Shown: positions 2,685-61,532 of the stretch, one piece after another
Numbering within the stretch: position 1 is the stretch's first letter
Layout: every line of letters begins with the position of its first letter
From: Rhodothermales bacterium
GTDB lineage: Bacteria; Bacteroidota; Rhodothermia; Rhodothermales; Bin80
Assembly: GCA_951812585.1 (NCBI GenBank)
Contig: OX638318.1
Span: forward strand, 88,819-152,818
Length of the DNA: 64,000 nucleotides
Direction: 5' to 3'
Notes under the pieces: generated by a model
Database searches by the model: none
Seen by the model: only the letters and a program-made list of their open reading frames with translations
What the model was told of the DNA's origin: nothing
Made by a program: the position numbers and the translations under genes

Positions 2685-2699
2685 GGCAGTTCCCCTGGG

Positions 2700-3986: not shown

Positions 3987-4071
3987 TGATGATGGCGCGG
4001 AGTATGGGTGCGGATTCCCGCTTTTGCTGCCGTCACGAGCGCCACAAGACGTTTACGGGTGGCAGAAATGC

Positions 4072-4419
4072 TTAGGTGTCTTCCGAATAACTGGCTGCGG
4101 CCTCTTCTACGGTGCCGTAGTGCTTGAAGACGGTGATGAGCTTGGTTACCATGAGCAGAGACTGGATACGTCCGGCCGCCTTGGCCAGACGCAGATCGCC
4201 TCCCGCATTGCGCATGGTCGTCATGCCGCTGATCAGCATGCCCAGACCGCTGGAGTTGAGAAACTTCACACGCCCTAGGTCGACCACGACATTGAGTTTC
4301 TGCTCTTCCTTGAGCTTGTGCAGCCGATCGTGGAGCTTCGCGCCGTCTGGCCCCCCCATAACGTCGCCGGTCAGCTTGATGACTACGGTATTGTAACGTT
4401 CGTTAACAGTGAATTTCAT
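4072..4419 (-). CDS. STAS-domain protein (anti-sigma-factor antagonist, SpoIIAA-like)
   Basis: 115 aa. The pattern VVDLGRVKFLNSSGLGMLI...GGDLRLA is typical of STAS/SpoIIAA proteins. Confidence 0.8.
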   Translation of the reverse strand: MKFTVNERYNTVVIKLTGDVMGGPDGAKLHDRLHKLKEEQKLNVVVDLGRVKFLNSSGLGMLISGMTTMRNAGGDLRLAKAAGRIQSLLMVTKLITVFKHYGTVEEAAASYSEDT

Positions 4420-4452
4420 GATTGCATTATGATTGAGTCCAGGGCTTGCGGC

Positions 4453-5406: not shown

Positions 5407-5430
5407 ACGAACGCGTAACAGTTGTTGCGA

Positions 5431-7368
5431 TCAGCCGAAGCTGACTGCGCGGTGCCGCTCGATAACGGCGTAGTCAAAGATGATGCGCGTGAACACGATT
5501 GCGCTGAAGAGCGAGGCCAGAATGCCCGCCATCAGTGTGACGGCGAAGCCCTTGATCGGCCCCACGCCAAAGGAATACAGGATCACGCCCACAAAAAACG
5601 TAGTGATGTTGGCATCTATGATGGCGCTCAGTGCTTTGCTGTATCCGCCGTCAATGGATGCCTTCAGCGTCTTGCCGCTGCTTTCTTCTTCGCGGACGCG
5701 CTCAAAGATGAGCACATTGGCGTCTACGGCCATGCCGATCGTGAGCACGATGCCCGCAATTCCTGGGAGCGTCAGCGTCGCCTGAAAGCCCGCCAGGATG
5801 CCGAGGATGAAGATGATATTGATGAGGAGCGCCAGATCGGCCACGCCACCCGCCCCGCGGTAGTAGAAGATCATGAAGACCGCCACGATGAACAGCCCCA
5901 CCATGATGGAGGTAAAGCCCGCCTGGCGCGACACCATGCCGAGGCTGGGGCCTACCGTGCGCTCTTCCACGATGTTGACCGGAGCAGGCAGCGCGCCGCT
6001 TTTGAGTACGGTTACGATATCCTCCGCTTCCTCGCGAGAGCCGAGTCCCGTAATCTGCGAGTTGCCCCCGGTAATCTTGCCGATGACCGTCGGATACGAG
6101 TACACGACTCCGTCCAGCACGATGGCGATGTTCTTGTCTATGTTGGCGCCCGTCAGGCGTGACCATATGCGTGCGCCTTCGGAATTCATCGTCATGGCCA
6201 CAAGCGGCTGGTTCGTCGTCTGGTCAAAGTCCACGCGGGCATCGGTGATCGTTTCGCCCGAAAGTTCTTCGTTGACGTTGACGCCCAGAACCGTGAAGAA
6301 TTCCTGGCTGGCGTTGGGATCAACGGGTCGCGAGTGGTACAACAGTTCGATATCACGGGGCAAGAGCGCCTGTACATCAGGATCAAGCATGAGCGCATTA
6401 AAGGCCGCCGTGTCTTGCGCCATGACATCGCCGAAGAGGACGCTACCCTGCTGCCTTGGCCGCATCACGTCCAGGAGCGCATTGCCGGCCAGTCCATACT
6501 CGTCGTCTTCCTGCGCCAGCAGCTCGCTCACGTCCAGCGCATCGTTATCTGCTGCAGTGGTTTCTGCTTCTTCGACCTCTGCCACTTGCGGCAGGACTTC
6601 CGGGACATCGCCGGTCATCGTGGTGTCGGCGACCGTCGTATCGGGTGCCGCTATGTCAACCTCAAAGTGCTGAATGATGCGCTGGATCGAATTGTTCAGC
6701 TCACCGGGATCGGCCATCAGCCTGAATTCCAGGCGTGCCGTGCCCTTGAGCAGTCGGCGAACGCGTTCGGGGTCATCCACGCCGGGAAGCTCTACCACGA
6801 TGCGCATACCCCCCTGGGTCTGTATGGATGGCTCGGTGACGCCGAAGCGGTCTACTCTGTTGCGGATAATCTCAATGGCGCGCGTGATGGCATCCGCCCC
6901 CTGCGTGCGCAGGTATGCCATAACCTCGCTGTTACTGGAGCGACGCGTGATTTCGTCGCTGCGGAAATACCGCGACAGCGAGGCATTCGGATCACGGCTT
7001 GCAAACTCCTCTTCGAACGCATCGATCAGTGGTGTCCCTTCGGCGAGCGTTCGCTCCGTGGCCGCCGCCAGTACCTCGTCAAAGAACTCGTCGCGCCGCT
7101 CTCCGGCCAGTCGCTGCACCAGTTCGGACAAGTCGACTTCCAGCGTGATGTGGATACCGCCTTGCAAGTCCAAGCCGAGGTTGAGGGCTTTCTCCTTGTT
7201 GCGCTGCAGCCGGGCGTAGTTATCGTTTTCGTACTCGATACGTTCGATCTCGGAGAGGTTTTCCAGCTTATTGTTGTAGTACAACCTCATCAGGGAGGGG
7301 TACAGGTACCAGCCCGACAGAAGTAGAAAAAAGATGACGGCCGAGACCTTCGTCAGGTTACCTTTCAT
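5431..7368 (-). CDS. secD: Protein translocase subunit SecD (with an acidic periplasmic insertion)
   Basis: 645 aa. The C-terminal membrane domain contains IAGIVLTIGMAVDANVLIFERVREE. It is adjacent to secF. Confidence 0.9.
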   Translation of the reverse strand: MKGNLTKVSAVIFFLLLSGWYLYPSLMRLYYNNKLENLSEIERIEYENDNYARLQRNKEKALNLGLDLQGGIHITLEVDLSELVQRLAGERRDEFFDEVLAAATERTLAEGTPLIDAFEEEFASRDPNASLSRYFRSDEITRRSSNSEVMAYLRTQGADAITRAIEIIRNRVDRFGVTEPSIQTQGGMRIVVELPGVDDPERVRRLLKGTARLEFRLMADPGELNNSIQRIIQHFEVDIAAPDTTVADTTMTGDVPEVLPQVAEVEEAETTAADNDALDVSELLAQEDDEYGLAGNALLDVMRPRQQGSVLFGDVMAQDTAAFNALMLDPDVQALLPRDIELLYHSRPVDPNASQEFFTVLGVNVNEELSGETITDARVDFDQTTNQPLVAMTMNSEGARIWSRLTGANIDKNIAIVLDGVVYSYPTVIGKITGGNSQITGLGSREEAEDIVTVLKSGALPAPVNIVEERTVGPSLGMVSRQAGFTSIMVGLFIVAVFMIFYYRGAGGVADLALLINIIFILGILAGFQATLTLPGIAGIVLTIGMAVDANVLIFERVREEESSGKTLKASIDGGYSKALSAIIDANITTFFVGVILYSFGVGPIKGFAVTLMAGILASLFSAIVFTRIIFDYAVIERHRAVSFG

Positions 7369-7629
7369 GTTTGTGTCGCCTGTTGCGGATCACCTCCTAG
7401 CGTGTACATTCGCCAAGAGCCACGTTTCAACGCTTGTCCGCGCATTCCGTGCCCTCGCGCGCCCTCATTGGCAGCAGCCCCGTAAACGCACAGTAGCGCA
7501 GCGTTGTTGCGATGGCCGTGGCCCCGCGTCGCCGGCAGGAGCCAGGGATGGACCAGAGTGCCCACGCCTGGCGCATCCGGTTGGCTTGGCATGCGCTGCG
7601 ATCAGGCAAGCGCCGCTCGTTCGCGCCGC

Positions 7630-7740
7630 GTCTGTCCTGATGCCGGCGAACTGGGCCGGCCGACCAGACTTCGGGTTCAGGCCGAACGCTTCCAGGTCGT
7701 ACCAGAAGAAATGGGCAGGCGGCCTTTTTACATTATGCAT
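7630..7740 (-). pseudogene. Relic of the N-terminus of exodeoxyribonuclease I (sbcB-like)
   Basis: MHNVKRPPAHFFWYDLEAFGLNPKSGRPAQFAGIRTD resembles the ExoI N-terminus (FLFHDYETFG...DRPAQFAAIRTD, DxE exonuclease motif). Similarity is lost after about 37 codons. Only about 370 bp lie before secD, far too little for a roughly 480-aa ExoI. Confidence 0.45.
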
Positions 7741-7926
7741 CCGGCGTGCAGGCATCGGTGATACACAGACGGTGTTAGCCAGGTTGGCCGGCAAAGCGCC
7801 TCGCGCCCAGCACGCGAATGCCAGAGTGATTCACCGTCGAAGACGCCCGGTCACTTCTCCATAGGTCAAGACACCAATGCTTCATGTAATCTTAACTTGA
7901 CATAGGGTCCTACTATGCCAGGCATG

Positions 7927-9354
7927 CTACTTTGGCTTGCGGACAATGCCACCGGTGTAGGGTTGAAAGTCGAACAGCGCGCCCGCGCCCAATACGCGTG
8001 GATCACCCGACGCGTGCAATTCGCCGAAAAGCTGATTCCAGAGTGCGCGCTTAGCATCAGCGTAGGCTGGGCTTTGGGCTATGTTCACCAGCTGGTCGGG
8101 ATCTGCCCGAAGGTCGTAGAGCTCTTCGCCGGGGCGCTTGTCGAACGCAAGGGCGAACAGCGCGGCATGGTGCTCCGCATGATCCACCATGAAATGCTTG
8201 GTCGGACTGCCATCGATGTCGCTATACCACGCTCCGTGCATGAATGACTGTTCGTCGTTGGGCGTTCCTGCCGGCCACCGGTCCGGCGCAAAATTGTAAA
8301 CGTAGAGATAGTCGTCCGTGCGCAAGGCGCGCATCGGATATCCGCCGCCGAGCGGAGTCTCCTGCGCGGGGGTATGACGCTCCCTTCCAAAATAGACCGC
8401 GTTCCGCGTGGAATCGACGCGGCCTGATCGGTCGGTGGTGAGCTGCGGCATCAGGCTGGCACCGGTCATGGCGTCCGGTACTGGCGCACCAGCCAGTTCC
8501 AGAAACGTAGGAGCCAAATCTGTCAGGCTCACCAGGTCCGTTACGCGGCGGCCGCCGGGGATCTTGCCTGGCAGGCGCGCAATAAGCGGCACGCGCACGC
8601 CCAGATCGTACAGGTTGCCCTTGGCGCGCGGAAAAGGCATGCCGTTATCGCTGGTGATGACAATCAGCGTCTGATCCAGCTCGCCAGCCTCAGCCAAGAG
8701 ATTAACTAGCACCCCCAGGTCCTGATCGATTCGCTGCACTTCGTAGTAGTAGTCTGCGATGTCGCTCCGCACGGTGGGCGCATCAGGAAACGCGGACGGC
8801 ACCGCGATGCTGTCGAGTGCGATGCCGCTACGCACTCCGGACTCAGGGTCGTATCCCCGGTGCGGATCGTACGTGCCGAACCAGAAGTTGAAAGGCTGGT
8901 CTTCATCACGCGTTTCGAGGAAAGCGGCAAAGGATTCATACCGGTCCCCAGCGGGATTGCGCTCGCGATCCCCCAGCCTGCCGGGGCCCCACCCTTTACG
9001 GGTATAGCCTACGCGGTACCCCGCCGCTTCCAGGAGGTCCGGGTATGCGGCATGGTGGGTGGCAAGCGACCCGTAGAGATTGCCGCCCGCGCGCAGTCGC
9101 CAAAACGACTGTCCTGTCAGCAGAGAGGCACGTGAAGGTGTACAAGAAGGCGATGACACAAAAGCGTGCTCAAACACCACACCTTCGCGCGCGATGCGAT
9201 CTATGTTGGGCGTAGCCACAGCGCGGTCGCCGTAGGCGCCCGCATGCAGCCAGCTCCAGTCGTCTGCGATGACCAATAGAATGTTGGGCTGCGCTGTGTG
9301 CGGTGCACCGGCAAAAACCAACGGCAGTATGGCCAGCGGAATAAAATACCTCAT
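7927..9354 (-). CDS. Secreted formylglycine-dependent sulfatase
   Basis: 475 aa with a signal peptide. It has the motifs LLVIADDW and SSPSCTPSRASLLTG (C-x-P-x-R sulfatase signature). Confidence 0.85.
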   Translation of the reverse strand: MRYFIPLAILPLVFAGAPHTAQPNILLVIADDWSWLHAGAYGDRAVATPNIDRIAREGVVFEHAFVSSPSCTPSRASLLTGQSFWRLRAGGNLYGSLATHHAAYPDLLEAAGYRVGYTRKGWGPGRLGDRERNPAGDRYESFAAFLETRDEDQPFNFWFGTYDPHRGYDPESGVRSGIALDSIAVPSAFPDAPTVRSDIADYYYEVQRIDQDLGVLVNLLAEAGELDQTLIVITSDNGMPFPRAKGNLYDLGVRVPLIARLPGKIPGGRRVTDLVSLTDLAPTFLELAGAPVPDAMTGASLMPQLTTDRSGRVDSTRNAVYFGRERHTPAQETPLGGGYPMRALRTDDYLYVYNFAPDRWPAGTPNDEQSFMHGAWYSDIDGSPTKHFMVDHAEHHAALFALAFDKRPGEELYDLRADPDQLVNIAQSPAYADAKRALWNQLFGELHASGDPRVLGAGALFDFQPYTGGIVRKPK

Positions 9355-9413
9355 TATCGTAGGCTTTAGTGGATTCTGATGCCATGCAAGTAAGGCTGAC
9401 GGCTCATTAAATT

Positions 9414-9442
9414 ACTGTCAAACACACTGTGATCGTCACTGT
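9414..9442. promoter_or_regulatory. Three ACTGT direct repeats at an exact 12-bp period in the sulfatase/glnN divergent promoter region
   Basis: ACTGT occurs at 9414, 9426 and 9438, about 70-100 bp upstream of the glnN ATG. The function is unknown. Confidence 0.25.
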
Positions 9443-9512
9443 ACGGACCGAATTTGGCTAACTTGAGGCCCACCTTACTTCCCGTCACTTATACGATTTA
9501 CACGCCATTATC

Positions 9513-11687
9513 ATGAGCAGCATGACTTTTGCCCATCACGTTGCAGCAGCCACGAAGGCCAGCGGGGGTATGCCGCCGCCACTGGAGCCACCGGACCTGG
9601 AGTTCTGCTTTGGCGAACGAACCTTCGGGCCGGTGGAGATGCGGAAGCGTCTGCCCAAGCAGGTATTTCAATCCATGGTGGCTGCCATGGAGAAGGGTGC
9701 AGCGTGGGATTCCAGCGTGGCCGACATCGTAGCACAAGCCATGAAGGAGTGGGCACTGGAGCACGGCGCCACGCACTTTGCGCATTGGTTTCAACCGCTG
9801 ACCGGCGCGACGGCCGCCAAGCACGACAGCTTTCTGAGCCCTTCTATCGGCGGAAAGATCGTCACGAAACTTTCGGGAGCTGATCTGATCCAAGGTGAGC
9901 CGGATGCTTCCAGTTTCCCTGGCGGCGGGTTGCGTGCCACGCATGAGGCGCGCGGGTACACCGCCTGGGATCCGACCTCGCCGGCGTTTCTGGTCAAGAA
10001 CCGCAACGGATGCTACCTGGCCATACCGACGGCGTTTGTATCCTGGACGGGCGAAGCACTAGACCACAAGACGCCACTCTTGCGCTCTATTGATACGTTG
10101 GACCGGCAGGCCCGCCGTGTGCTGAAGCTCTTCGGCATCAATGTCGAGCGGGTATATTCCACCGTGGGGACTGAGCAGGAGTACTTTCTGATTGATGAGG
10201 AGTACTTCTATCGGCGTCCTGACCTGGTCAACTGCGGTCGAACGCTTATTGGCGCCAAACCGCCGAAGGGGCAGCAGCTGGACGATCATTACTTCGGGGA
10301 TATCGAAGAGCGCATGATGGCCTTCATGCTGGCTGCTGAAAAGGAGCTTTACCTGCTTGGCATTCCGGCCAAGACGCGCCACAACGAGGTGGCCCCGGGC
10401 CAGTACGAGATCGCACCGGTCTTTGAAGATTCCAACCGCGCCACCGACCATCAGCACCTGATCATGCGCACGTTAGCGCGCGCCGCACGTCAGTACGGAC
10501 TGGTGTGTCTCTTGCACGAAAAACCCTTTGCGGGTATCAACGGGTCTGGCAAGCACAACAACTGGTCTGTCTCGACGGATACTGGCCTCAATCTGCTTGA
10601 TCCGGGCCCAACGCCGCATTCCAATCCGCTGTTCATGTTCTTCTGCACAGCTGTGATCCGCTCGGTGTTCAAGCATCAGGATCTGCTCAGAATCTCTGTG
10701 GCTTCTGCGGCCAACGATCACCGCCTCGGTGCCAACGAAGCGCCTCCGGCGATCATGAGCGTCTTTCTGGGCGAGCAGCTCAGCAATATCTACGAGCAGC
10801 TCAAGGACGGACCGGCCACCAGCAGCATGCGCGGGTCCAAGATGTTCCTGGGGGTTACGGGCCTGCCCACTTTACCGAAGCACGCCGGTGATCGCAACCG
10901 CACCTCGCCGTTTGCCTTTACGGGCAACAAGTTCGAGTTCCGTGCGGTTGGCTCCAGTCAGTCTGTGTCGTTTCCGAACGTCGTGCTGAATGTGGCGATG
11001 GCCGAGTCGCTCGATGTGATGGGCCAGGCGCTGGCGACCGCACTCGGTGATGGCGACCCTGCCGACGAGTCGGTGCTTTCAGACGCTGTTACGCGGGTGG
11101 TTCGGGAGGTGATGGACGAGGCGCGGCCCATCCTGTTTGAGGGCGACAACTACGACGAGGCATGGCACCAGGAGGCAGAGCGGCGTGGCCTGTTGAATCT
11201 GCGCACCACGGTGGACGCGCTTGAACGGATGACAGACCGGAAGAACATCGACATCTTTGAGTACTACGATGTGCTGAGCGAGCGCGAGTTTCTGGCGCGC
11301 CAGGAGGTATGGCTGGAACAGTACGAGATGAACATCGACATTGAGGCCGAGACGCTGGATGCCATCGCACGCACGCAGGTGATGCCTGCTGCTGTGGCCT
11401 ACCTGAACGCGCTGATCAGCGCGTCGGCGGGCAGTGGATCTCACGGCATCGGCATAGCGAAGAGCGAGGTGGCATCAGGCATCGACGATCTGCAGGCCGG
11501 CCTTGCTGCACTGTCCAAAGCGATGGCCGCCCATGGCGGCGACACGCAGGCCAATGCACGGCACCGCTGCGACCATGTTGTGCCTGCCATGGGCCAGGTG
11601 CGTGCAGCCTGCGATGCCTTGGAGCGCCTTGTACCTGCCCACTTGTGGCCGCTCCCGACGTATCAGGACATGCTGTTTGTGCATTAG
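9513..11687 (+). CDS. glnN: Glutamine synthetase, type III
   Basis: 724 aa, the length class of GSIII. It contains [12 protein letters not shown] (the GS NGSG-H motif) and APGQYEIAP. Confidence 0.85.
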
Positions 11688-12484
11688 TCCGCATCGGTCA
11701 CCAAGGTTTGAATCGCCATACACGCGAGGCGTTTGAAGACATTGGTTCACGGTGTGGGAGCGCAAAGGCTGATTCCCGCCTTCTGGAGCATTTAGCCGGC
11801 GGCAGCAAGCGGTGGTTTGGATACGTTTCGAGCATAACCCCTTCGTGCACCGGTGCTTCTTGGACACACGTATCCAAGAGCCACCCTGTGGCCACCGATC
11901 AATCTGTTCAATCTGTGGAGCAAGTCGGGTCTGGAAGCGCCTATGAAGGCGAGGCGCGCGCACTGGCCGTGGTGGCGTGCAGAGCGTTCCCGTACCACTG
12001 AGGGTCGTACGCAGTCTCCCCCGTAGCGGAGCACTTCGCACTACATTGGGTGACCGTTACAGGCCAGATTGCCTTCCAACGTCCGCCATGTAGTACTCAA
12101 GAGCGGCCAGCCATCCTGGCTTCGCACAGTCAGTTTTCGGCTTACGGGAAGGATGGTGCATCGCGCAGTATTGGTGGCATTGGAATGGTTACGAGTCGTG
12201 CTTCACACCTTGGCTACCCTGCCTTCGCAACGTTGAACGGTGCGCTATGACGCGGAGCATTTCATTTTCCCAAGGCTTCCAGCGCGACCCGCGGCGTTGG
12301 ATGGCCATCAATAGTCCCATGGGATCGCAAGCGGCACGCACACGCATAATGGGTGAAACTTGCCTTTCTTTTCCGACATCTGCAATCGTTCTGCTCTGGC
12401 CGCAGGTTGCAAAAGGATTCGCTTTGCGCAACGTTTCACTTGCCCAATCCCAATGCAACTCACGCAGTCTAGGCGCTCTGGGTG

Positions 12485-13189
12485 CTACGCCGACTCGTGC
12501 CAGGCGGAAATGTCGCAAAGCGGCTTACGGTGAATGTCGGGGACGGTAGCATCCGTGCTTGGGTAACCAACGGGAAACAGCACGTAGGCCCGCTCATTCG
12601 AAGGACGTCCGAGGATGTCGCGCAGAAAGCGCATGGGACTCGGCGTATGCGTCAGCGTAACCAAGCCCATGTGGTGCAGCGCGGCAATGAAGAGGCCGCA
12701 TGCCATGCCACAGCTTTCCTGGACGTAGTAATTCTTGCGGTTTTTGCCATCCGGGCCAAGGCCGTAAAACTCGGCGAAGCAGACAACGATCCAAGGGGCC
12801 GTTTCCAGATATGGCTTGTGCCAATCAGTACCGAGCGGTGCCAATGCCTTCAGCCATTCCGGTGGCATGCGGCGATGGTAACTTTCGTACTCTTCCGCTT
12901 CGGCGGCAATGCGGATCTTGCGCTTTAGTGCCGGATCGCTCACTGCCACGAACCGCCAAGGCTGGCGATGTGCCCCGCTGGGCGCCGTTCCCGCCGTCCT
13001 GATGGCATCTTCAATGAGCTCCTTCGGCACGGCTCGGTCGCTGAATGCACGTACAGATCGCCGCGCCGCCATCAGCCGGTAGAACTGCCGTGCACGCGTA
13101 CGCATCTCCTTTTGCGAGCGCTCCGCGAACTGCAGCGACACATGAGAATACTTGGCCATGAAGTTCGCACCAGTGGATGCAAGGTGCAC
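12485..13189 (-). CDS. Iodotyrosine deiodinase-like nitroreductase-family flavoprotein
   Basis: RRSVRAF...IRTAGTAPSGAHRQPWRFVAVSDPALKRKIR and the C-terminal VGYPSTDATVPDIHRKPL are collinear with animal IYD as I remember it. An alternative start lies at 13159 (MAKYSH). Confidence 0.75.
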   Translation of the reverse strand: MHLASTGANFMAKYSHVSLQFAERSQKEMRTRARQFYRLMAARRSVRAFSDRAVPKELIEDAIRTAGTAPSGAHRQPWRFVAVSDPALKRKIRIAAEAEEYESYHRRMPPEWLKALAPLGTDWHKPYLETAPWIVVCFAEFYGLGPDGKNRKNYYVQESCGMACGLFIAALHHMGLVTLTHTPSPMRFLRDILGRPSNERAYVLFPVGYPSTDATVPDIHRKPLCDISAWHESA

Positions 13190-13261
13190 GCAAGTGGTAA
13201 TAGCTGCAGAAGACTGATTATACCATCGACTGCACGATGCGTCGACAACTAGTCATCAGCC

Positions 13262-14767
13262 CTACGGAGACAGGCGGCCCAACATGCGCGGAAACGGTAT
13301 GGTTTCGCGTATGTGCTCCAAGTGACCGATCCAACCCACCGTACGCTCCAATCCAAGCCCAAAGCCCGCGTGCGGCACCGAGCCGTAGCGGCGCAGATCG
13401 AAATACCATTCGAAGGCTTCTCGCGGGAGCCCATGCTCATCCACCTGTCGCTGCAGGAAGAAAAGATCGGTGGCCCGCTCTCCCCCGCCAATAATTTCTC
13501 CATAGCCTTCGGGAGCCAGGACATCCATGCCCAGCGCCAGCCGGTCGTCCTCAGGGTCACGCTTCATGTAGAACGCCTTGACAGCCGCCGGATACCGGTG
13601 GATAATAATCGGGCGATCAAAGTGCCATGTGAGGAGCGTTTCGTCGCTGCCCCCAAAGTCCTTGCCCCACACAAAGTCGCGTGCAGATTCTGCCCATTGT
13701 GGAAGGTTGCGCTGCGCTTCTTCGATCTCGCCTATGCGCTGATTGATCACAATCCTGCGTGCATCCATCTGGCGCCGCTTCCACTGCTTGACCTGACCGT
13801 ACCGCTTCCCTATTTGAGCCTGCTCCGCTTCAAGTGCTGACCGCTCCGTGTGCAGATTCTCAGCGTGCTGCTGCAGCAGCTCTTGCGTCTTGGGGCTAGT
13901 CAGCAGTTCTACCGCCTCCGAATACGAAATTCGAGGAAAGGGTGCTTGGACACGCGCCAACGGAGCGGTATCGCGCTTCAGCATTGTGAGTTCTGCTTGG
14001 CAGTCACGCAACACATCCTGCACCAGGCGCACGATGAAGTCCTCGGCGAGATCCATGTTCATATCCAGATCATAGAATGCCATCTCCGGCTCTATCATCC
14101 AGAACTCGGTCAGGTGGCGGCGGGTTTTGGACTTTTCTGCGCGAAACGTTGGTCCGAACGTATAGATCTTGCCAAAGGCCATCGCCATCACTTCACCGTG
14201 CAGCTGCCCGCTCTGGGTCAAGTACGCGGGTGACCCGAAGTAGTCAATTTCAAACAGCGTGCTCGTTCCCTCTACTGCGCTGCCGGTGAGTATCGGCGCG
14301 TCCATCTGCACGAAGCCGCGCTCCTGGTAGAACTCGTGGATCGACATGATCACGCGATTGCGAATCCGCAGGGCCGCCCACTGCCGCCGGCTTCGGAGCC
14401 ACAGGTGGCGCCGATCCATCAGAAAGTCGACGCCATGCGCCTTTGGCGTGATTGGATACTCCTCCGCAAGGCTGATCAGCTCCACGCCACTGGCCTGCAG
14501 CTCCACGCCTCCGATCTGGCGTTCATGCGCCACGACCTGGCCTCGGAGCACCAGCGCGCTTTCCTGGGTTGCCTGCGCGGCTGCGGACCAGGACGCGTCG
14601 TCTACTTCACGTTTGGCAACCACGCACTGCACGACGCCACTCCCGTCTCTAAGCTCAATGAAGTAGAGATTCTTCGAGGCCCGCTTGTTCTGGAGCCAGC
14701 CCTGCAGGACAACGGCTTTACCTACATGGGTCGCTAGCGCCTCAACAGCAACTGCCGACTTGTCCAC
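13262..14767 (-). CDS. asnS: Asparagine--tRNA ligase (with a coiled-coil insertion)
   Basis: 501 aa with a GTG start. Class II motifs present: KIYTFGPTFRAEKS, EFWMIEPEMAF, GEIIGGGER and RRYGSVPHAGFGLGLER. Confidence 0.85.
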   Translation of the reverse strand: MDKSAVAVEALATHVGKAVVLQGWLQNKRASKNLYFIELRDGSGVVQCVVAKREVDDASWSAAAQATQESALVLRGQVVAHERQIGGVELQASGVELISLAEEYPITPKAHGVDFLMDRRHLWLRSRRQWAALRIRNRVIMSIHEFYQERGFVQMDAPILTGSAVEGTSTLFEIDYFGSPAYLTQSGQLHGEVMAMAFGKIYTFGPTFRAEKSKTRRHLTEFWMIEPEMAFYDLDMNMDLAEDFIVRLVQDVLRDCQAELTMLKRDTAPLARVQAPFPRISYSEAVELLTSPKTQELLQQHAENLHTERSALEAEQAQIGKRYGQVKQWKRRQMDARRIVINQRIGEIEEAQRNLPQWAESARDFVWGKDFGGSDETLLTWHFDRPIIIHRYPAAVKAFYMKRDPEDDRLALGMDVLAPEGYGEIIGGGERATDLFFLQRQVDEHGLPREAFEWYFDLRRYGSVPHAGFGLGLERTVGWIGHLEHIRETIPFPRMLGRLSP

Positions 14768-16185: not shown

Positions 16186-16914
16186 TGCTGGCTGTAGCTT
16201 GCTGTAGCTTGGGGTTGAAGTCCGGCTGCTGCCGCCGAGGCGCACGACACGCCCACTACTAAAGTTACGATGCCTAACGCAAAAACTTGTTGTCATTTGC
16301 ACGTTCGATGCACGGTTTCCGGTCCAACGCACCGGTCGCGCGCGCAAGACAAGGTGCTGCCCGGCCCACTGCGCGGCAAGAGAACGCAGCAATGCAGACA
16401 TCGGCGACCCCCAGCGTGACCGGCATCTAACGAGCCGCCACCGCGGGCGTTTTGGCATCGGCACGCGCAGCGCGCAGGCGTTCCTGCCACTCATTACAAT
16501 CAGATGCTTGCTGCCGCGCCAGTAACAGGAGCCATGCACGGCGCAATGAAGAAGCAGTTTCGGCTCACGTCTGGGCGTGCCCGCGGCACTTGGGACGCCG
16601 CCGCTCAGGTGGTTTCTTTAACGGCATTGAAAATGCGCCGCTGCCGTGCATATCAGGACAGACTTTCTGCAAAGCGACTGCAAACCCACGCATCTATCAG
16701 CGGCCATCCCAACCGGTTACGATCCATCCGCGTCCCAGCCTAGCTAATTTTGATACCATGTCTCACGCCTCTTCATTTAGCCTGCGGTAAATCCTTGTGT
16801 ATCCAGATCTTGCTCTCTGCGCGGTATGCGCGCATTTGCCGGTGCCGGTGGTGTAATAGCCACGAGAGACTGTGGCCATGCCATGCTTGCGCCCGGCGGT
16901 GTGCACTGCGCTAA

Positions 16915-16951
16915 ACGAACAAGGCTGCCTGTGCACTGCACAGGCAGCCTT
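16915..16951 (-). terminator. Candidate rho-independent terminator of the autotransporter gene
   Basis: A 13-bp perfect stem (aaggctgcctgtg / cacaggcagcctt, 16921-16951) lies 28 nt after the stop. It is followed on the minus strand by GTTCGTTTAG, a weak T tract. Confidence 0.45.
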
Positions 16952-16978
16952 GCCGCTTGATAGCCGTATGGGGGTTGG

Positions 16979-19900
16979 CTACTTCAGCTTGACGCTGCCG
17001 CGAAGCCCTACCCTGGTGCTGGCTCCCGCATGGCCGCTCACATTCTGCTCGGTAAATACATCAACTGTTACCATCGGCTGGGAACCACCCTGCTGGCCCA
17101 GCACAGCTATGCTCGTACCAGCTTGCACGTTGTATCCGGAGTAGGCGTTGTTGGTCCAACGCCCGAACGGCGCCATGCGCGTGCGCGCGCTGACCGGCAT
17201 CTTGTACCCTATCTGGACGCCGACTCGGTCGGGGCGGGCCTTGACTTCCGAAGAACCTGCCATCGACATCACCTGCCCTAATGTCCCTTCCTGGCGGAAG
17301 AGCGCATCAGCACCGCCATACGCGTTGCCCCAACTGGGCTCTACTGATATCGCCAAGCCCTCGTCGCCGCCTGGCGTCAGGCGCAATGTCAAGCTTGCAC
17401 CCCAGTCACTGTAGCCCTCAGCTTGGTGCACTAGGAGTGTGCGCGCACGGAAGTCCATGCTCAATCCTGAACCGGCATGGGCGTACCCACCGGATACGGC
17501 CGCCTCTGCGCCAACACCATTATCGGCATCGCCGCCATCCACCCGGAGGCCCATCTCAACGCTGCCGCTATACGATGAGGTGGCATTAGACCGCCGCACA
17601 CCCAGTTCAGGGGCAATGCGCAAACGCTGCGCGCGCGCGGTTACCTCTTCTAAATCTGCAGCGAGGTCCGAATCAATCTGGACTGTGAAAACATCGGCCT
17701 TCAAGGCAAATGTACTTCCAATGGCCTGACGCAGGCCGGCTGCTGCCATCGTCATGCTGAGATCCGTTGAGAGATCGTCACCCAAATCCTCGCTAATGTC
17801 AGCAGAGCCGCTGCCGCCACCCAAGACGCCCCACAGGCTGAGACCTGCGGAGGGCGCGTACCGTACGTATGGATGGATGCCCGTCAGGGACGTTTCTATA
17901 CTGCCATCGCCATTAAGGCTGCTCGAAAAATCAACCTCACCCGAGGTTGCAGAGATGGCGACACCTGCCAGGAATTTGCTACCGAACTGGTAGTCGCCGC
18001 CAAAGTAGATCGAAGAGGTGCTCCCTTCCATGGAGAAACCATCATCGGGCGAACCTTCGAATGAGCCTATGTTGCCGCGACCCCATAAGGTTAAGTCCCC
18101 CTTGGCAGCCTGGAAGGAAGAGTGGGACAGCAGCGACTGGTGTTGCAATCCGATTGGGCTGCGTGCGCTGCCAAGCGTCGACATGCCGGCGAGCGCCGCT
18201 GGCGTAAGCATGCTGTGCATGCCACCCTGGGGTCGCGATGCGCGCAGGCCTAGAAGGCTTGCCGCGGTGCCCGCGAAGGTCTGGAGCGAACAGGATTGGC
18301 CGGCGCTGAATACGCCACACGAAAGCGACTGGCCCATCAGCTGGCCATGGCTCCTGGAAGCGTTCATGCGCGATCCAATGACATCGACGGTTTCCGTACC
18401 TATGGTTCGAGCCACGGCCGCCAGCGTGAACTTCAGGGTGCGTGCCCGCTCAGCTACTGATACTTGAATGGTCACGGTAAACTCCTGCGATGCCGACAGC
18501 CCATCGGGGTCCTCCGCCATGACCGTAACGCTGGTGACGCCGATCGCGATTGGGGTCACCATGAGCTGCGTGCCGCTTACGGAAACATCCGCGACACCTT
18601 GGGTGGCAGCACTGGCCGAGTAGTTAAGCGGATCGCTGTCTGGATCACTGAAGTTGGCCTCCACATCCATGGACAACGTGCTTGCATCTACCTGCATGAA
18701 TACGTCATCGAACGTGCCTACCGCCATGGGAGACTCGTTTTCGTCCAGGATTGTGACCGTAGCCTGCGCCGAAGCCGAAAGGCCATCCCCGTCGGTCGCA
18801 TTCACGGTGAACGCGTAGCTGCTGGGACCACCTTCAAAGTCTTCACCTGATCCCACATAGCGAATATTGCCAGCACCATCCACGCTAAACAGCGCTGCTG
18901 TAGCGCCGGAGAGCGAGAGCGCCAGCGCATCATTGTCTGGATCCGACGCATTCACCCTGCCAACCGTGGTTGGGCCGGGAAGGTTTTCTGAAAGGGTGAA
19001 GAAGTACTCCGCTGCATCAAAGGAGGGTGACTCGTTCACATCCGTAACGGTGACCGTGATTTCCGCTGTAGCCGAAAGGTTACCCGTGTCTGTGACGATG
19101 GCAGAGAATACGAACGGTGGCGTACCATCCTCAAAATTTTCTCCGCTTCCAGAGTAAATGATGTCCCCGTCGTCGATGTTGAAGTGCGCGGATCCAGCGC
19201 CCGTCAAGGAGAAGGTCAGATTGTCGCCATCGGGATCAGACGATTCCGTGGACCCAACCACGACTGGACCTGCGTCGTTTTCCTTCAGCTGGAATGTATA
19301 CGATGTCATCGAAAACGTGGGCGCCTCGTTGACATCCATGATGGTGACCTCGACCGCGGTTCGACCTTCCAGTCCGCCCTGGTCGATGGCCAGGGCATTG
19401 AACTCGTAGCGCTGGGGACCGCCTTCGTAGTCTTCGCCCGGCCCTGTATAGGAAACGACCCCGTTGCTTCTTCCAATCCTGAACTGCAACGCGCCACTGC
19501 CTTCCAGGCTATAGCTGATAGCATCTGATTCTGGATCTGTCGCCATCAGCTCTCCGATCTGCACGGGGCCCGCGTCATTTTCGTCCAGCATCAGGTCATA
19601 CTGGCGCTGCGAGAATACGGGCGCTTCCTCCACGTTTACAACGGTTACGGTGACCTCTGCTTCCGTGTACAGGTTGCGGTTGTCAGTCGCCCGCACCTTG
19701 AACATGAAGGCGCGCATTTCAGACTCGTAGTTCTCTCCGCTCCCGGTATAGGACAAAGCGCCAGTGGCGGCAATGCTGAACGACCCTGCATCGGCACCGA
19801 GGAGCTGATACGTGAAGGGTCTGTCTTCATCGTGCGTCGCCGTGGTGTTGCCTAGGAGCAGAGGACCAGCCTTGTTTTCCATGAGATCAAACGCATAGGA

Positions 19901-22291
19901 GCTCTGCTCAAAGCGCGGCAGTTCCACCACATCGGTGATCGTCACCGTGACAGCAGCCGTAGACCTCAGGTTGGCTTGGTCTCTCGCGGTTAGCGTCAGC
20001 GCATAACTGTTGGGTGGCGTTTCGAAGTCTTCCCCGGCACCCGCGTAGGTGATCAAGCCCATTGATGATACGGCAAACCTGTTCGCACCTGTCCCCGAGA
20101 GGCTGTAGGTGATCATGTCGCCGGCATCCGGGTCCATGGCCATCGCCGATCCTACGGTGTCGGCGGCGGCGACACTTTCTGGAATGCTGAAGGCGAAGGT
20201 CGTCTCCGCAAACGTCGGTGCTTCGTTGACGTTCACCACGGTCACGGAGACCGGCACATCCGTATACACCTCATCCGAGGTGCGGGCGCGTACCATGAAG
20301 TTGTACACGTTTGGCAGCGTTTCAAAGTCTTCCCCGTCGCCAACGTAGTCCAAATCCCCTGTGGTGAGGTCGATGCTGAACTTGTCCTCGGGCGCACCCT
20401 CCAGGCTATAGGCTATGGCCACTGGCAACTCGACCGTTGCGGCCACAGTACCCAGCGGTACCGCTGTTCCTTCCGGTGTTGCTTCCTTCAGGTTAAAGGC
20501 GTAGCTCTCAAATGAGAACTTGGGCACATCCGAGCCGCCGCCATCCCCTTCTATCGTCACGGTGACCGTTGTGCTTGCTTGCCGTCTGCCGGGGTCAGTG
20601 GCTACTACTGTCAGGGTGTAGCTTGGGGGATCGCCCGTTTCGCCTGGGCCGATGTAGGATATGGCACCACCGGTGGCTGAAACCGTGAAGCGATCACTGC
20701 CGATCAGGCTATAGGTCAACGCATCGCCATCGGGATCTGTCGCAGATACGGTGCCGACGCTGACGGCCGTATCGTCCCCCGACTGGCCGGGAGCCAAGGT
20801 GAACGCATAATTCAGCGCAGCAAACACCGGCGGCAGGTTGCCACCGCCACCGCCACCGCCACCGCCACCACCACCGCCGCCGCCGCCGCCACCACCACCA
20901 CCACCACCACCGGTGGTGTCGCTGTGCTTGATGGTTACTCCAGCAGTGGACGTTTCCGCTGTGCCCACCTCCGTAGCAGTCACGGTTAGTAAGAGATCCG
21001 GAATTCGCGTTGCGGCTTGAAACAACGGCACAGGAACCGTTCCCGTGTATGTCAAGATGCCGGTGTTGATGCCGACGTCGATGGAGTCTATATAGTGGCA
21101 TAGATCGAGATCTGTAGTACAGCCAGCGTTGCGATCCCCTATAGCCGGCAAACTGTATTCTACCGCTTGCCTCGTTAAGCTTGTTGCAGTGACCTTGCCA
21201 ATCTGGGCACCGGTCGTCCACAGCTGAACAAGATTGAATATGTAACTCTCCTGCTCTGCCGGTACGTCGAATTTGGGGTAATCCACAAAATCGATGGTGA
21301 CTGTCGCATCGAGGCTCTCCTGTCCATCGGTGGCTGTAATTGTAACTTCATGTTTATCATTCATGCCCGTAAAATCCACCCCCGTACCCGTATAAAGCAG
21401 CTCGTCCTCACTACTCTTGATCTCGTACGAGCTTGCATCAGTACCACTCAACGTAAGCTGAAAGTCGGCGCCTTCTGGGTCCTTAACAGTGAACCTTCCA
21501 ACAGACCACGGCACGTCCGCGCCGGAGACAGCTTCAGGCAACGAAAACGTGTACGTAGGAAGAGCAGCAGTACCTCCGGCATCTGTAAATACGGGTGCCT
21601 CGTTTGCGTTCGTCACCTTGACCGTGACGGGGACGGTATCTGACCCTGTGGTACCATTCGGACCTCCAGAGTACGTAGCCCGTAACACCAGGCTGTACGC
21701 ACTGCTGGGATTGGAAAACGACTCGAAGTCTTCGCCATCGCCGGCATAGGTCAGAGCTCCGCCGTCGGCGTTGTATGGGTCAGTACCCGTTGGAGTATCA
21801 GTTGTCCCGCCAAAAGTCACTTCGAATCCCTTGTACTCCTGCTGTCCACTGGCGTTGGTGAAATCCCACCGGACCTGCGATCCACTCGCTGCTCCGCAGG
21901 TTGCAAAATCTGGATTAGTCTCGTCATTGTTATTGAGGGTGTAAGCCAAGCCACCGTCAGCTTCATTTTCCTCTAACGTAACCGTCAGGCTGACCACTCC
22001 AATTAATGCAGGGTCGGTCGCCTGGTCAGCCGGATCCCCGTCACAGTCCGTGTCCGGGTTCGTGCTGGGTCCGAGGACGATCCTGAAACCACTAGTCTGG
22101 GCCTGCGCGGAATTCACAGCGCTTACCGCCAAGAGCGCGAACGTCAAGAGCATGCACAAACCTAAAGGAAGCCAGGTCCCGGACTGGCTGAGGCCCCGCC
22201 TAAGCCGCGGAGCACCAGCAGGTCGCAGGGCAAACGCACGTGACGAAAGAGGTGAAGAAAACAGCGTGGAAGTCGACATATCTGCCACCAA
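16979..22291 (-). CDS. Giant cadherin-repeat adhesin with a C-terminal autotransporter (type V) beta-barrel domain
   Basis: 1,770 aa with a signal peptide (LLTFALLAVSAVNSAQA). It has at least 10 repeats of about 100 aa ending in cadherin-like V(T/V)D/NVNEAP(T/V)F junctions. The C-terminal ~450 aa (LTLWGRGNIGSFEG...YFGGDYQF...GVAIS...) has the alternating pattern of an autotransporter barrel. Confidence 0.75.
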   Translation of the reverse strand: MVADMSTSTLFSSPLSSRAFALRPAGAPRLRRGLSQSGTWLPLGLCMLLTFALLAVSAVNSAQAQTSGFRIVLGPSTNPDTDCDGDPADQATDPALIGVVSLTVTLEENEADGGLAYTLNNNDETNPDFATCGAASGSQVRWDFTNASGQQEYKGFEVTFGGTTDTPTGTDPYNADGGALTYAGDGEDFESFSNPSSAYSLVLRATYSGGPNGTTGSDTVPVTVKVTNANEAPVFTDAGGTAALPTYTFSLPEAVSGADVPWSVGRFTVKDPEGADFQLTLSGTDASSYEIKSSEDELLYTGTGVDFTGMNDKHEVTITATDGQESLDATVTIDFVDYPKFDVPAEQESYIFNLVQLWTTGAQIGKVTATSLTRQAVEYSLPAIGDRNAGCTTDLDLCHYIDSIDVGINTGILTYTGTVPVPLFQAATRIPDLLLTVTATEVGTAETSTAGVTIKHSDTTGGGGGGGGGGGGGGGGGGGGGGGGNLPPVFAALNYAFTLAPGQSGDDTAVSVGTVSATDPDGDALTYSLIGSDRFTVSATGGAISYIGPGETGDPPSYTLTVVATDPGRRQASTTVTVTIEGDGGGSDVPKFSFESYAFNLKEATPEGTAVPLGTVAATVELPVAIAYSLEGAPEDKFSIDLTTGDLDYVGDGEDFETLPNVYNFMVRARTSDEVYTDVPVSVTVVNVNEAPTFAETTFAFSIPESVAAADTVGSAMAMDPDAGDMITYSLSGTGANRFAVSSMGLITYAGAGEDFETPPNSYALTLTARDQANLRSTAAVTVTITDVVELPRFEQSSYAFDLMENKAGPLLLGNTTATHDEDRPFTYQLLGADAGSFSIAATGALSYTGSGENYESEMRAFMFKVRATDNRNLYTEAEVTVTVVNVEEAPVFSQRQYDLMLDENDAGPVQIGELMATDPESDAISYSLEGSGALQFRIGRSNGVVSYTGPGEDYEGGPQRYEFNALAIDQGGLEGRTAVEVTIMDVNEAPTFSMTSYTFQLKENDAGPVVVGSTESSDPDGDNLTFSLTGAGSAHFNIDDGDIIYSGSGENFEDGTPPFVFSAIVTDTGNLSATAEITVTVTDVNESPSFDAAEYFFTLSENLPGPTTVGRVNASDPDNDALALSLSGATAALFSVDGAGNIRYVGSGEDFEGGPSSYAFTVNATDGDGLSASAQATVTILDENESPMAVGTFDDVFMQVDASTLSMDVEANFSDPDSDPLNYSASAATQGVADVSVSGTQLMVTPIAIGVTSVTVMAEDPDGLSASQEFTVTIQVSVAERARTLKFTLAAVARTIGTETVDVIGSRMNASRSHGQLMGQSLSCGVFSAGQSCSLQTFAGTAASLLGLRASRPQGGMHSMLTPAALAGMSTLGSARSPIGLQHQSLLSHSSFQAAKGDLTLWGRGNIGSFEGSPDDGFSMEGSTSSIYFGGDYQFGSKFLAGVAISATSGEVDFSSSLNGDGSIETSLTGIHPYVRYAPSAGLSLWGVLGGGSGSADISEDLGDDLSTDLSMTMAAAGLRQAIGSTFALKADVFTVQIDSDLAADLEEVTARAQRLRIAPELGVRRSNATSSYSGSVEMGLRVDGGDADNGVGAEAAVSGGYAHAGSGLSMDFRARTLLVHQAEGYSDWGASLTLRLTPGGDEGLAISVEPSWGNAYGGADALFRQEGTLGQVMSMAGSSEVKARPDRVGVQIGYKMPVSARTRMAPFGRWTNNAYSGYNVQAGTSIAVLGQQGGSQPMVTVDVFTEQNVSGHAGASTRVGLRGSVKLK
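20841..20912 (-). repeat. 72-bp trinucleotide (CCR on the plus strand = GGY/GGN codons) tract encoding 24 consecutive glycines
   Basis: The run ccaccgccaccgcc...ccaccaccg translates as ...HSDTT-G24-NLPPVF inside the autotransporter gene. Confidence 0.95.
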
Positions 22292-31023: not shown

Positions 31024-31108
31024 TGCCTATGCCCATGTGCTTGCTTCTCAGGGCAATTGGGTCTTGGGCACGGGCATCCACTGGATCGCACGGGACCAGT
31101 TACCGTTG
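31024..31108 (+). pseudogene. Degenerate second copy of the last ~28 codons of the helicase gene
   Basis: AYAHVLASQGNWVLGTGIHWIARDQLPL aligns collinearly with AYIHVLSSQGKTVLGAGIHWLRTGQITW (30877-30960). Confidence 0.6.
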
Positions 31109-31252
31109 AGGACGTTGCACCTTGAAGTGCGCTGCTGTACGCAGGTCTGCGGGGGTCAGTCCCTGAGCCAAGGACGCCGGCGCAACTGCGTGATTCCAAA
31201 GTGCCAAAACGTATATTGGCTGGCAACCTCGTGCAACACACACCAATCCGAA

Positions 31253-33094
31253 ATGCAGCAGTCCATGCCCATGCGCAGCGCAGTAAGCCTTATGATGCTT
31301 GGATTGGGACTGTCCTGGGGCACAGCACCAGCGGCAGCGCAGGTATGGGACCTGGTGTGGGCTGATGAATTCGATTACCAAGGCCTCCCGGACGGGACGC
31401 GCTGGAGCTACGACGTAGGCGGGCACGGATGGGGGAACAACGAAGCGCAATACTATACCAGCGCCCGCGAAAAGAATGCCCGCGTGGATGGCAGTGCGCT
31501 CATCATCGAAGCGCACAAGGAATCGTACCAAGGCAAGGAGTACACCTCGGCACGCCTGGTCACCAAGGCCAAGGGAGACTGGGCTTATGGACGCATCCTG
31601 GTGCGGGCCAAACTGCCCTCGGGTCGGGGAACCTGGCCGGCTATATGGATGCTGCCGACCAACAATCCGTACGGCAATGGGAGTTGGCCCGACAACGGCG
31701 AAATAGACATCATGGAGCATGTGGGATATGATGCGGGCCGGATTCACGCCGCCGTGCACACGAACAAGTACAACCACCAGCGAGCCAACGCCCGGGGCGA
31801 CAGTCGGTATGTGGGCGACGCCGAAACAGCCTTCCATGAATACAGCGTGGACTGGACGCCTACGCGGATGGATTTTGCTGTTGATGGCAACGTCTACTTT
31901 ACGTATCACAACGAAGGCGATGGCTGGGTGTCCTGGCCGTTTGATCGCGAATTCCACCTGCTGCTCAACATCGCTATTGGCGGCCGCTGGGGCGGTGCGC
32001 AAGGGATAGACGACTCCATCTTCCCGCAGCAATTCGTCATCGACTATGTCCGGGTGTATCGATACATCGCGCAGCCGTATCTCACATTTATGCCTCCAAA
32101 CGCCTTGGCGGCCGGCGACACACTGCGCTTGGCTGCTGATGCGACAGACGCAGATGGCGTCGTGCATCGCGTGGAGTTCAGACAAGGCGATGCAATCCTG
32201 AGTCAGCACACCTCGCCTCCGTACGAGCACACCATCCAAGGAGTGCACCCAGGCTGCTACAAGCTGACCGCCTTGGCGATAGACGACCTTGGATGGACTA
32301 CCGCTGCCGACACAACGGTGCTTACTGTTGGCCAAAGCTGCGACAAGGCTCCGTACCTTGTCGCTCCGCACGCAGTGCCCGGCAGGATAGAAGCTGAATA
32401 CTTTGATCTTGGCGGTCCGAACATCGGCTACTTTGACCTTAATCCATCCAACTTTGGAGACGGGATCCGGCAGTCCGAAGGCGTGGAAGTCTACCGTACT
32501 ACCGACGGCAGCGGGTACCATGTGCAGAGCGTGCGCCACGAGTGGCTTGCGTACACCGTCCGTGTGGTGGACCCCGGCCTGTATACGTTCTTCGTGCGCC
32601 TATCTACGTATGGTGCCAGAGCAGCGTTCACCTTATCGGTCGATGGCGTCGACCAGGTCCTGTACGATGATGTGGTGACACCCAACCAGTGGGGCATAGT
32701 ATTTGCCACCGATGTAGCACTCGACGAGGGCGTGCGCGACTTGCGGCTGACTGTGCACGAAAACAATACCAGCATCAATTGGCTGCGGTTCATCTATTCG
32801 GGGCCGTTGTCCACAGAGGAAGAGCCAGGCTGGGAGCGCACCATGCTGCACGAAAACTACCCGAATCCGTTTCGTGACGCAACCACCCTCGCCTACACTG
32901 TTACGCACCCGGGCCCTGTGCAGATCGAAGTGTTCAATGCGCTAGGGCAAAGGGTCACGCGGCTGGCTGATCATCATCACAGCGTGGGTCGGCACCGGAT
33001 CCGTTACGATGCAAGCGGACTGGGAGCTGGGCTTTACTTCTATCGGCTCACAAGCGGCGCGACGCAGCAGAATCGCATCATGGTCAAACTGTGA
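31253..33094 (+). CDS. GH16 beta-glucanase (laminarinase-like) with Ig-like and CBM6-like modules and a T9SS C-terminal sorting domain
   Basis: Start at ATG 31253 (signal peptide MQQSMPMRSAVSLMMLGLGLSWGTAPAAAQ). The GH16 catalytic motif is GEIDIMEH. The CBM6-like segment is GRIEAEYFD...WLAYTV. The C-terminal NYPNPFRDATTL...GLYFYRL...MVKL is the T9SS tail. Confidence 0.8.
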   Translation: MQQSMPMRSAVSLMMLGLGLSWGTAPAAAQVWDLVWADEFDYQGLPDGTRWSYDVGGHGWGNNEAQYYTSAREKNARVDGSALIIEAHKESYQGKEYTSARLVTKAKGDWAYGRILVRAKLPSGRGTWPAIWMLPTNNPYGNGSWPDNGEIDIMEHVGYDAGRIHAAVHTNKYNHQRANARGDSRYVGDAETAFHEYSVDWTPTRMDFAVDGNVYFTYHNEGDGWVSWPFDREFHLLLNIAIGGRWGGAQGIDDSIFPQQFVIDYVRVYRYIAQPYLTFMPPNALAAGDTLRLAADATDADGVVHRVEFRQGDAILSQHTSPPYEHTIQGVHPGCYKLTALAIDDLGWTTAADTTVLTVGQSCDKAPYLVAPHAVPGRIEAEYFDLGGPNIGYFDLNPSNFGDGIRQSEGVEVYRTTDGSGYHVQSVRHEWLAYTVRVVDPGLYTFFVRLSTYGARAAFTLSVDGVDQVLYDDVVTPNQWGIVFATDVALDEGVRDLRLTVHENNTSINWLRFIYSGPLSTEEEPGWERTMLHENYPNPFRDATTLAYTVTHPGPVQIEVFNALGQRVTRLADHHHSVGRHRIRYDASGLGAGLYFYRLTSGATQQNRIMVKL

Positions 33095-59717: not shown

Positions 59718-59826
59718 GGGACAAACATATTGGCTCCGCTCTGTAGCGTACGCGCACTGCGCACAATAGGAGCCATGTGTTCTCTGACGGTTTGCCCAAG
59801 ATTGGGCTGCAGGCAGCGCACCGGTC

Positions 59827-61487: not shown

Positions 61488-61495
61488 GGTGCCAG

Positions 61496-61524: not shown

Positions 61525-61532
61525 TGCGCAGA

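Follow-up and report, generated by a model that had tools for sequence, protein, structure and literature searches.

The gene at positions 16979–22291 (minus strand) of a 64,000-nucleotide stretch of Rhodothermales DNA (contig OX638318.1; the whole stretch is called “the window” below) probably encodes a self-anchored surface adhesin, whose β domain is distantly related to the barrels of type Va autotransporters and belongs to a module that appears to move between phyla of sponge symbionts. An initial annotation, made from the sequence alone, had described the product as an autotransporter-like adhesin with a cadherin-repeat passenger, and this reading was broadly right; for the β domain, however, it is supported in the sense of a divergent relative of the autotransporters, not of a canonical family member.

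The relationship to autotransporters resides in the C-terminal module of 493 residues, which consists of a helix, a low-complexity tether and an all-β domain. Scanned in isolation against Pfam, this module matches the autotransporter model PF03797 only (25.8 bits, E = 1e-5), while the last 400 residues reach 26.9 bits (E = 4.9e-6), i.e., a value at the gathering threshold of 26. Among 67 barrels of the family, 20 match PF03797 at E ≤ 0.01 (best 2.2e-13), and four sampled relatives score above the threshold, with 33.6–42.2 bits. PF13505 (OMP_b-brl) is matched by 17 of the 67 barrels over the same strands, each sampled match staying under its own threshold. These profile matches point to a homology that is real but distant, and that probably extends over strands 1 to ~10 of autotransporter barrels.

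The predicted structure is consistent with this relationship. In the AlphaFold2 (AF2) model of the adhesin module (predicted local distance difference test, pLDDT, 76; predicted TM-score, pTM, 0.71), the last ~380 residues are all-β with good confidence and form 18 long strands, in agreement with the barrel that the initial annotation had expected there. A second model, of the typical relative P0003 (pLDDT 68, pTM 0.58), has the same layout: a confident helix of 30 residues, a disordered stretch of 80–110 residues rich in Gly, Ala and Pro, a short conserved “SSF” strand, and 18 long strands, of which strands 13 and 14 are connected by a long loop of low confidence. Hydrophobicity alternates along the strands across 67 homologues in the family alignment. 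In the adhesin, the conserved linker helix (18362–18457, minus strand, as are all parts of the module; residues 1279–1310, module residues 2–33) has a pLDDT of ~90, and R18 and R31 within it hardly vary across the family. It is followed by the low-complexity, disordered tether (18122–18361, residues 1311–1390), which in relatives comprises 80–170 G/A/P-rich residues. The part related to autotransporters (17378–18121, residues 1391–1638) contains the conserved SSF segment and strands 1–12, the PF03797 match (residues 1402–1624) and the motif GLRxDGGDAxxG. The remaining residues (16982–17377, residues 1639–1770) contribute six further strands and a long variable loop, and end in GLRGSVKLK.

When the P0003 model is compared with the Protein Data Bank (PDB) by Foldseek, the type Va barrels EstA, NalP, EspP, BrkA, Hbp and AIDA-I rank first, with a TM-score (TMt) of 0.77 and a root mean square deviation (rmsd) of 4.0 Å over 259 columns for BrkA; the adhesin model itself reaches a TMt of 0.55–0.63 against the same barrels. 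In these alignments, complete 12-strand autotransporter barrels superpose on ~250–260 contiguous columns (TMt 0.55–0.77, rmsd 4–6 Å), and the first 12 strands of the models thus appear to superpose on solved autotransporter barrels. Alternatively, the β domain could be one enlarged barrel of ~18 strands, representing a new subclass of type V-like systems, whose pore would be wide enough for the helix and the Gly-rich segment to plug it. In favor of such a barrel, DSSP assigns 18 long strands to both models, all with alternating hydrophobicity, the conserved terminal aromatic, which resembles a β-signal, stands at the end of strand 18 and not of strand 12, and LptD, TonB-dependent receptors and TamA are among the Foldseek matches. 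However, besides the contiguous superposition of entire 12-strand barrels, the 18-strand porins of the OprD family reach a TMt of only 0.23–0.26 against the P0003 model, and a proline-rich junction follows strand 12 (NPTPSTP in P0003, TPGG in the adhesin), so that we regard the enlarged barrel as unlikely. A mean-field direct coupling analysis of 220 barrels (effective number of sequences, Meff, 131), in which the pairing partner of strand 1 was sought, returned gap artefacts and a single contact, between strands 4 and 5. No motif in the entire barrel family is more strongly conserved than GLRxDGGDAETGxG, which lies where strands 9 and 10 meet (window ~17510–17551, minus strand; residues ~1581–1594); as an acidic and Gly-rich segment, it looks like a calcium-binding loop.

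Several observations weigh against a closer relationship to the classical type Va autotransporters (EspP, BrkA, NalP, Hbp, AIDA-I; PF03797), with which the adhesin shares the order of signal peptide, passenger and C-terminal β domain, the sequence similarity over about strands 1–10 and the apparent superposition of the first 12 predicted strands, and whose terminal W or F is found in most members of its family. The PF03797 match on the adhesin, itself only at threshold level, spans profile positions 1–203 of 255, and across the family no match passes position ~207, i.e., the last ~50 profile positions never align. The full-length adhesin has no autotransporter match in Pfam at E ≤ 1, and neither TIGR01414 nor the other NCBIfam models match any of seven barrels (alignment A2, the adhesin included). 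No autotransporter or other outer membrane protein turned up when PDB sequences were searched with the single domain or with either of two profiles, and the hhalign comparison of the family with four autotransporter barrels of E. coli K-12 (Ag43, YfaL, YpjA, YcgV) was insignificant. The family is unrecognised by NCBIfam and, for most members, by Pfam. The β domain is also ~110–130 residues longer than a classical autotransporter barrel: its last ~130 residues (six strands), following strand 12, form a predicted family-specific extension outside the 12-strand match. The linker helix does not adjoin the barrel but lies ~80 disordered residues away from strand 1, across the low-complexity stretch of 80–170 residues in the family, and the segment abutting strand 1 is not a helix but the short conserved β segment SSFQAAK. 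Finally, the passenger is built from Ig-like domains in series and not as a β-helix, and the clade of the adhesin ends in [F/L]-[K/R/E] instead of an aromatic residue. Helix position, terminal aromatic and full-length model match are therefore defining features of autotransporters that the adhesin misses or reaches only borderline. The hallmarks of an autotransporter β domain proposed by the initial annotation hold for the threshold match on the isolated C-terminus and for the type Va barrels at the top of the Foldseek ranking, but not for the full-length protein, TIGR01414, the length of the domain or the position of the helix. Inverse (type Ve) autotransporters have an N-terminal barrel, and trimeric (type Vc) ones a 4-strand YadA-type anchor; the adhesin fits neither type, since its barrel is C-terminal and monomer-sized, and Pfam models of these types do not match.

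The passenger begins with a membrane-distal N-terminal region that contains one partial repeat (21602–22099, minus strand; residues 65–230), followed by an array of cadherin-like repeats of ~100 residues each (18461–21601, minus strand; residues 231–1277). Here, the Pfam matches are strong, with Cadherin at E = 3e-45 (five stretches), Big_9 at 3e-30 and Cadherin_4 at 1e-21. A hidden Markov model trained on the five clearest repeats of the adhesin recognizes 11 units from residue 175 to residue 1275, seven of them strong, one good and three weak or partial, and the estimate of at least ten cadherin-like repeats therefore stands. All seven junction motifs listed at the outset (NANEAPVF, NVNEAPTF, DVVELPRF, NVEEAPVF, DVNEAPTF, DVNESPSF, DENESPM) were located, at residues 228, 687, 787, 886, 986, 1084 and 1183. 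The junctions follow the pattern D/N-x-N-E-x-P-x-F, similar to the DxNDNxPxF junctions of cadherin-like repeat proteins (PF00028 and bacterial relatives), and the repeats contain DPD and EN motifs; together, these motifs resemble the Ca2+-binding sites of cadherins. A run of 24 Gly residues (20840–20911, minus strand) is encoded in frame by a (GGTGGC)12 microsatellite and comprises 19 and 21 Gly in two 99%-identical strain variants; it is an in-frame hinge of variable length.

Cadherin arrays are also found in giant adhesins of the type I secretion system (T1SS), such as SiiE, LapA and CabC/CabD of Saccharophagus degradans (cited in PMC12153261). As predicted for the adhesin, these are long Ca2+-binding rods of cadherin- or Ig-like domains for adhesion, and the repeat families Cadherin, Big_9 and Cadherin_4 are common to both. 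In contrast to the adhesin, with its N-terminal signal peptide and C-terminal barrel, they carry a C-terminal T1SS signal and have neither a signal peptide nor a barrel. T1SS repeat models score far under their cutoffs on the adhesin (T1SS_rpt_143, 14.8 bits, cutoff 66; LapB_rpt_80, 11.7 bits, cutoff 45), and no T1SS or repeats-in-toxin (RTX) signal was detected in the protein. The type IX secretion system (T9SS) provides a further comparison within the window: as the initial annotation had stated, neighboring secreted proteins use T9SS tails, and the Por_Secre_tail domain is present in four of them (33978–39467, 42171–47675, 49386–54875, and a GH16 protein at 31037–33094). Similar to the adhesin, these T9SS cargo proteins (DUF4397 giants and GH16) are large and belong to the secreted or surface proteins of the organism, but Pfam scans of the full-length adhesin and of its isolated C-terminus revealed no Por_Secre_tail C-terminal domain.

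These features suggest the following mode of export and anchoring. The precursor would be exported by Sec, and the C-terminal β domain would then be integrated into the outer membrane through the β-barrel assembly machinery (BAM). Counting strand parity in the AF2 models back from a periplasmic C-terminus, strand 1 would start in the periplasm, and tether, helix and passenger would therefore lie outside the cell. The SSF segment, joined to strand 1 on the periplasmic side, would thread the pore from outside to inside, as the pore segment of autotransporters does. The passenger would form a calcium-stiffened rod of ~11 cadherin-like domains with a poly-Gly hinge, and its variable distal tip might bind host matrix, host cells or other microbes. 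Another possibility is that the C-terminal domain merely serves as a generic outer membrane anchor without translocation, the passenger being periplasmic or exported otherwise. The matches to PF13505 could be taken in this sense, as could the autotransporter matches, which many members show only marginally and others not at all. Nevertheless, thousands of relatives keep the order of signal peptide, adhesion array, helix and barrel, and autotransporter barrels are the best structural matches. Moreover, the tip of the adhesin evolves fast, as expected of an exposed surface, and the protein lacks T9SS, T1SS and RTX signals; we consider a generic anchor very unlikely.

The difference in evolutionary rate emerges from a comparison of the adhesin with two strain variants (96.9% protein identity); the counts are small. 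In the distal part (residues 47–460), the nonsynonymous divergence (pN) is 0.037–0.038 and its ratio to the synonymous divergence (pN/pS) ~1.0–1.3. Both values are lower in the repeats (residues 485–1277; pN 0.008, pN/pS 0.61) and lowest in linker and barrel (residues 1278–1770; pN 0.001–0.002, pN/pS 0.17–0.34). The fastest-evolving part comprises residues 65–230 together with residues 231–460. The pattern nevertheless fits a functional anchor with an exposed, diversifying tip.

Purifying selection on the barrel also bears on the C-terminal residues, VKLK, for which the initial annotation had remarked on the absence of the usual terminal aromatic. The observation is correct: the adhesin ends in GSVKLK, an ending that does not vary among four independent assemblies. 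In the family, W is the last residue of 126 of the 156 sequences examined. The closest relatives end in VKL or VKLD, and the endings in the Gemmatimonadota clade, to which the barrel is closest, are IRLK, VHFR, IGFK, VRFR and IVFE. On account of the endings of strains, closest relatives and this clade, VKLK can be read as a normal alternating last strand with a pattern shifted by one, in which the hydrophobic L at position -2 is followed by one extra charged residue. The absence of the aromatic is thus a conserved trait of the clade and not a defect or truncation. That the gene might instead be a decaying or mis-assembled remnant, with VKLK as the end of a truncated barrel, could be argued from the missing F or W and from the aberrant tail of the closest database protein (P0001). 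However, the open reading frame is intact in all four assemblies, the barrel is under purifying selection, the nearest clade ends in [F/L]-[K/R/E] or L throughout, and a strong terminator-like hairpin follows the stop codon. In addition, a TonB-dependent receptor of the same species (locus L082, 14900–16897, minus strand) ends in GLSMVLP and likewise has no terminal aromatic. A remnant is therefore extremely unlikely. The receptor, as a single case, hints that BAM of the host does not require a terminal aromatic, and that outer membrane insertion in this lineage may rely on a signal that deviates from the F/W rule of proteobacteria.

Beyond the individual gene, the analysis adds the family itself: large and without annotation, it occurs in sponge symbionts of many phyla and carries adhesion arrays on an autotransporter-related barrel. 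With an exhaustive profile search, 9,742 clusters (representatives at 50% identity) were retrieved at E ≤ 1e-3, of which 5,539 remain at E ≤ 1e-30. Nearly all of the 150 matches listed carry the barrel domain at their C-terminus, and none of 36 homologues from an indexed search has a precomputed PF03797 annotation. When one genome per species was scanned, more than 365 relatives emerged; the 80 best come nearly all from metagenome-assembled genomes (MAGs). These 80 belong to Gemmatimonadota/Longimicrobiales, Acidobacteriota, Alpha- and Gammaproteobacteria, Latescibacterota, Nitrospirales, Nitrospinota, Binatia, Thermodesulfobacteriota, Spirochaetia, Rhodothermales and Ca. Entotheonella. MAGs of the name series “jk18x” and “SB06xx” trace to papers on sponge symbionts, and the chromosome-level MAGs among the relatives look like sponge assemblies of the Aquatic Symbiosis Genomics project. 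Passengers sampled across phyla consist of Calx-beta, cadherin-type, fn3 or PKD arrays, and no β-helix model matches them. The module thus defines a very large, unannotated family that carries adhesion arrays in sponge-symbiont MAGs of more than ten phyla.

Cadherin, Calx-beta and fn3 are among the “eukaryote-like” domains that are enriched in sponge symbionts (PMC9531527, PMC11706023, PMC10947273). In excerpts from this literature, these domains are counted, and no link is made to an export or anchoring module or to an autotransporter-type anchor, nor is it stated by what route the proteins arrive at the cell surface (PMC9531527, PMC11706023, PMC10947273); one paper discusses an autotransporter there, but only an unrelated inverse one. 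As far as these excerpts describe them, the eukaryote-like proteins resemble the adhesin in domain classes, habitat, distribution across phyla and suspected lateral transfer, and differ from it in the shared C-terminal barrel module identified here. Calx-beta is also the domain from which the aggregation factor of the sponge itself is built (PMC5400394). The same module carrying Calx-beta, cadherin, fn3 or PKD arrays in many phyla would appear to move between them. Tentatively, the module might represent an unrecognised type V-like branch of secretion, which serves sponge symbionts of more than ten phyla as a common, laterally exchanged platform for displaying these arrays; we consider this extended proposal possible rather than probable.

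For the adhesin itself, lateral transfer is plausible because the nearest full-length homologues are found in Gemmatimonadota. In a neighbor-joining tree of 67 barrels, it groups with five barrels of Gemmatimonadota/Longimicrobiales (38–47% identity), while the barrels of two Rhodothermales MAGs, with 31–32% identity, fall outside this group; many other clades of the tree mix phyla as well. The tree is distance-based, and the taxonomic labels of MAGs may be imperfect. Three of the Gemmatimonadota proteins also share the adjoining cadherin repeats, with ~40% identity over 500–670 residues. On the other hand, family members occur in Rhodothermales and other MAGs of T9SS lineages, and the position of the gene between housekeeping genes is at best neutral with respect to transfer. 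Nucleotide composition gives no decisive signal either: the GC content at third codon positions (GC3) is 0.64 in the adhesin gene, 0.68–0.75 in housekeeping genes and 0.66–0.67 in the T9SS giants, and the tetranucleotide correlation with housekeeping sequence is 0.85 for the adhesin and 0.75 for the T9SS giants. The deviation of the adhesin gene in GC and tetranucleotide composition is mild and, for tetranucleotides, smaller than that of these native-looking giants, and composition is therefore uninformative on transfer. The earlier view of the gene as a possibly horizontally acquired outlier is thus supported in part, by the affinities of barrel and repeats, but weakened by the occurrence of the family in related lineages, the housekeeping flanks and the mild deviation in composition.

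The host is a T9SS-lineage Rhodothermales symbiont of the sponge Petrosia ficiformis. This assignment rests on three lines of evidence: a stretch of 21.5 kb including the adhesin gene is 99.2% identical to LXNJ01000005.1, which belongs to a metagenome assembly of this Mediterranean sponge (PMC5099237); all named relatives of the PurA encoded in the window (61–64% identity) are Rhodothermales or Rhodothermaceae; and further products of the window include a type III glutamine synthetase, a GWxTD protein and T9SS cargo. An identical copy of PurA is present in eight metagenome contigs.

The open reading frame of the adhesin (1770 codons, uninterrupted, minus strand) is given in its maximal form, with a TTG at 22291. 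On two independent, 99%-identical contigs (L089, L090), gene callers let the product begin at residue 47 (window 22153), with an ATG codon in the window and GTG in the strain variants. This start coincides with that of a Sec-type signal peptide, predicted by reading the letters directly: MLLTFALLAVSAVNSAQA followed by QTSG (22100–22153, minus strand; residues 47–64). An alternative ATG upstream, at residue 5 (22279), would yield an extended signal peptide of 60 residues with an RLRRG n-region; the DNA upstream of the adhesin start is identical between strains and does not settle the choice between residues 5 and 47. Within ~25 nucleotides of the stop codon, a strong hairpin begins, which is followed by UUCGUUU (16910–16964, minus strand; -39.1 kcal/mol, z = -6.3) and looks like an intrinsic terminator. 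The housekeeping genes flanking the adhesin gene are LysRS/GWxTD on one side and AddAB on the other, and no synteny was found between the window and 81 related loci.

Elsewhere in the window, three tandem copies of a protein of 1829–1834 residues with DUF4397 and a T9SS C-terminal domain occupy positions 33978–54875 (minus strand), with ~95% protein identity and a DNA unit of 6.4 kb at ~97% identity; an rve-family integrase (40246–41523) lies between the first and second copies. At 56036–63802 (minus strand), 34 kb from the adhesin gene, a block of higher GC content (0.62–0.64) encodes a conjugative type IV secretion set resembling that of an integrative and conjugative element, comprising a VirD4/TraG coupling protein, CagX/VirB9, VirB8, TrbL/VirB6, a VirB5-like protein and a VirB4-like ATPase. 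At the opposite edge, strain contigs (loci L082–L088) match window positions 1–13986 at 99.5% and diverge at once past locus position 13986, left of window position 1, where one contig encodes a TonB receptor, others AlpA and an Eco57I-type restriction-modification gene, and another TrbL/VirB8; the region just left of the window thus looks like a strain-variable island. Near the adhesin gene, the window further encodes a sulfatase (7927–9354, minus strand) and the GH16 glycoside hydrolase, which carries CBM6 in addition to its T9SS tail (31037–33094, plus strand). Both enzymes would fit the use of sulfated or β-glucan-type polysaccharides of host or algal origin.

For secretion biology, the adhesin family is of interest as a relative of autotransporters whose passenger is Ig-like, whose tether is long and disordered, and whose β domain includes an additional extension of six strands. 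For sponge symbionts, a common barrel module missing from database annotation (~9,700 clusters at 50% identity) would provide a concrete, testable mechanism for the export and anchoring of the enriched “eukaryote-like” domains. It would also serve as a marker for finding such adhesins, and as a case of habitat-driven gene sharing across phyla.

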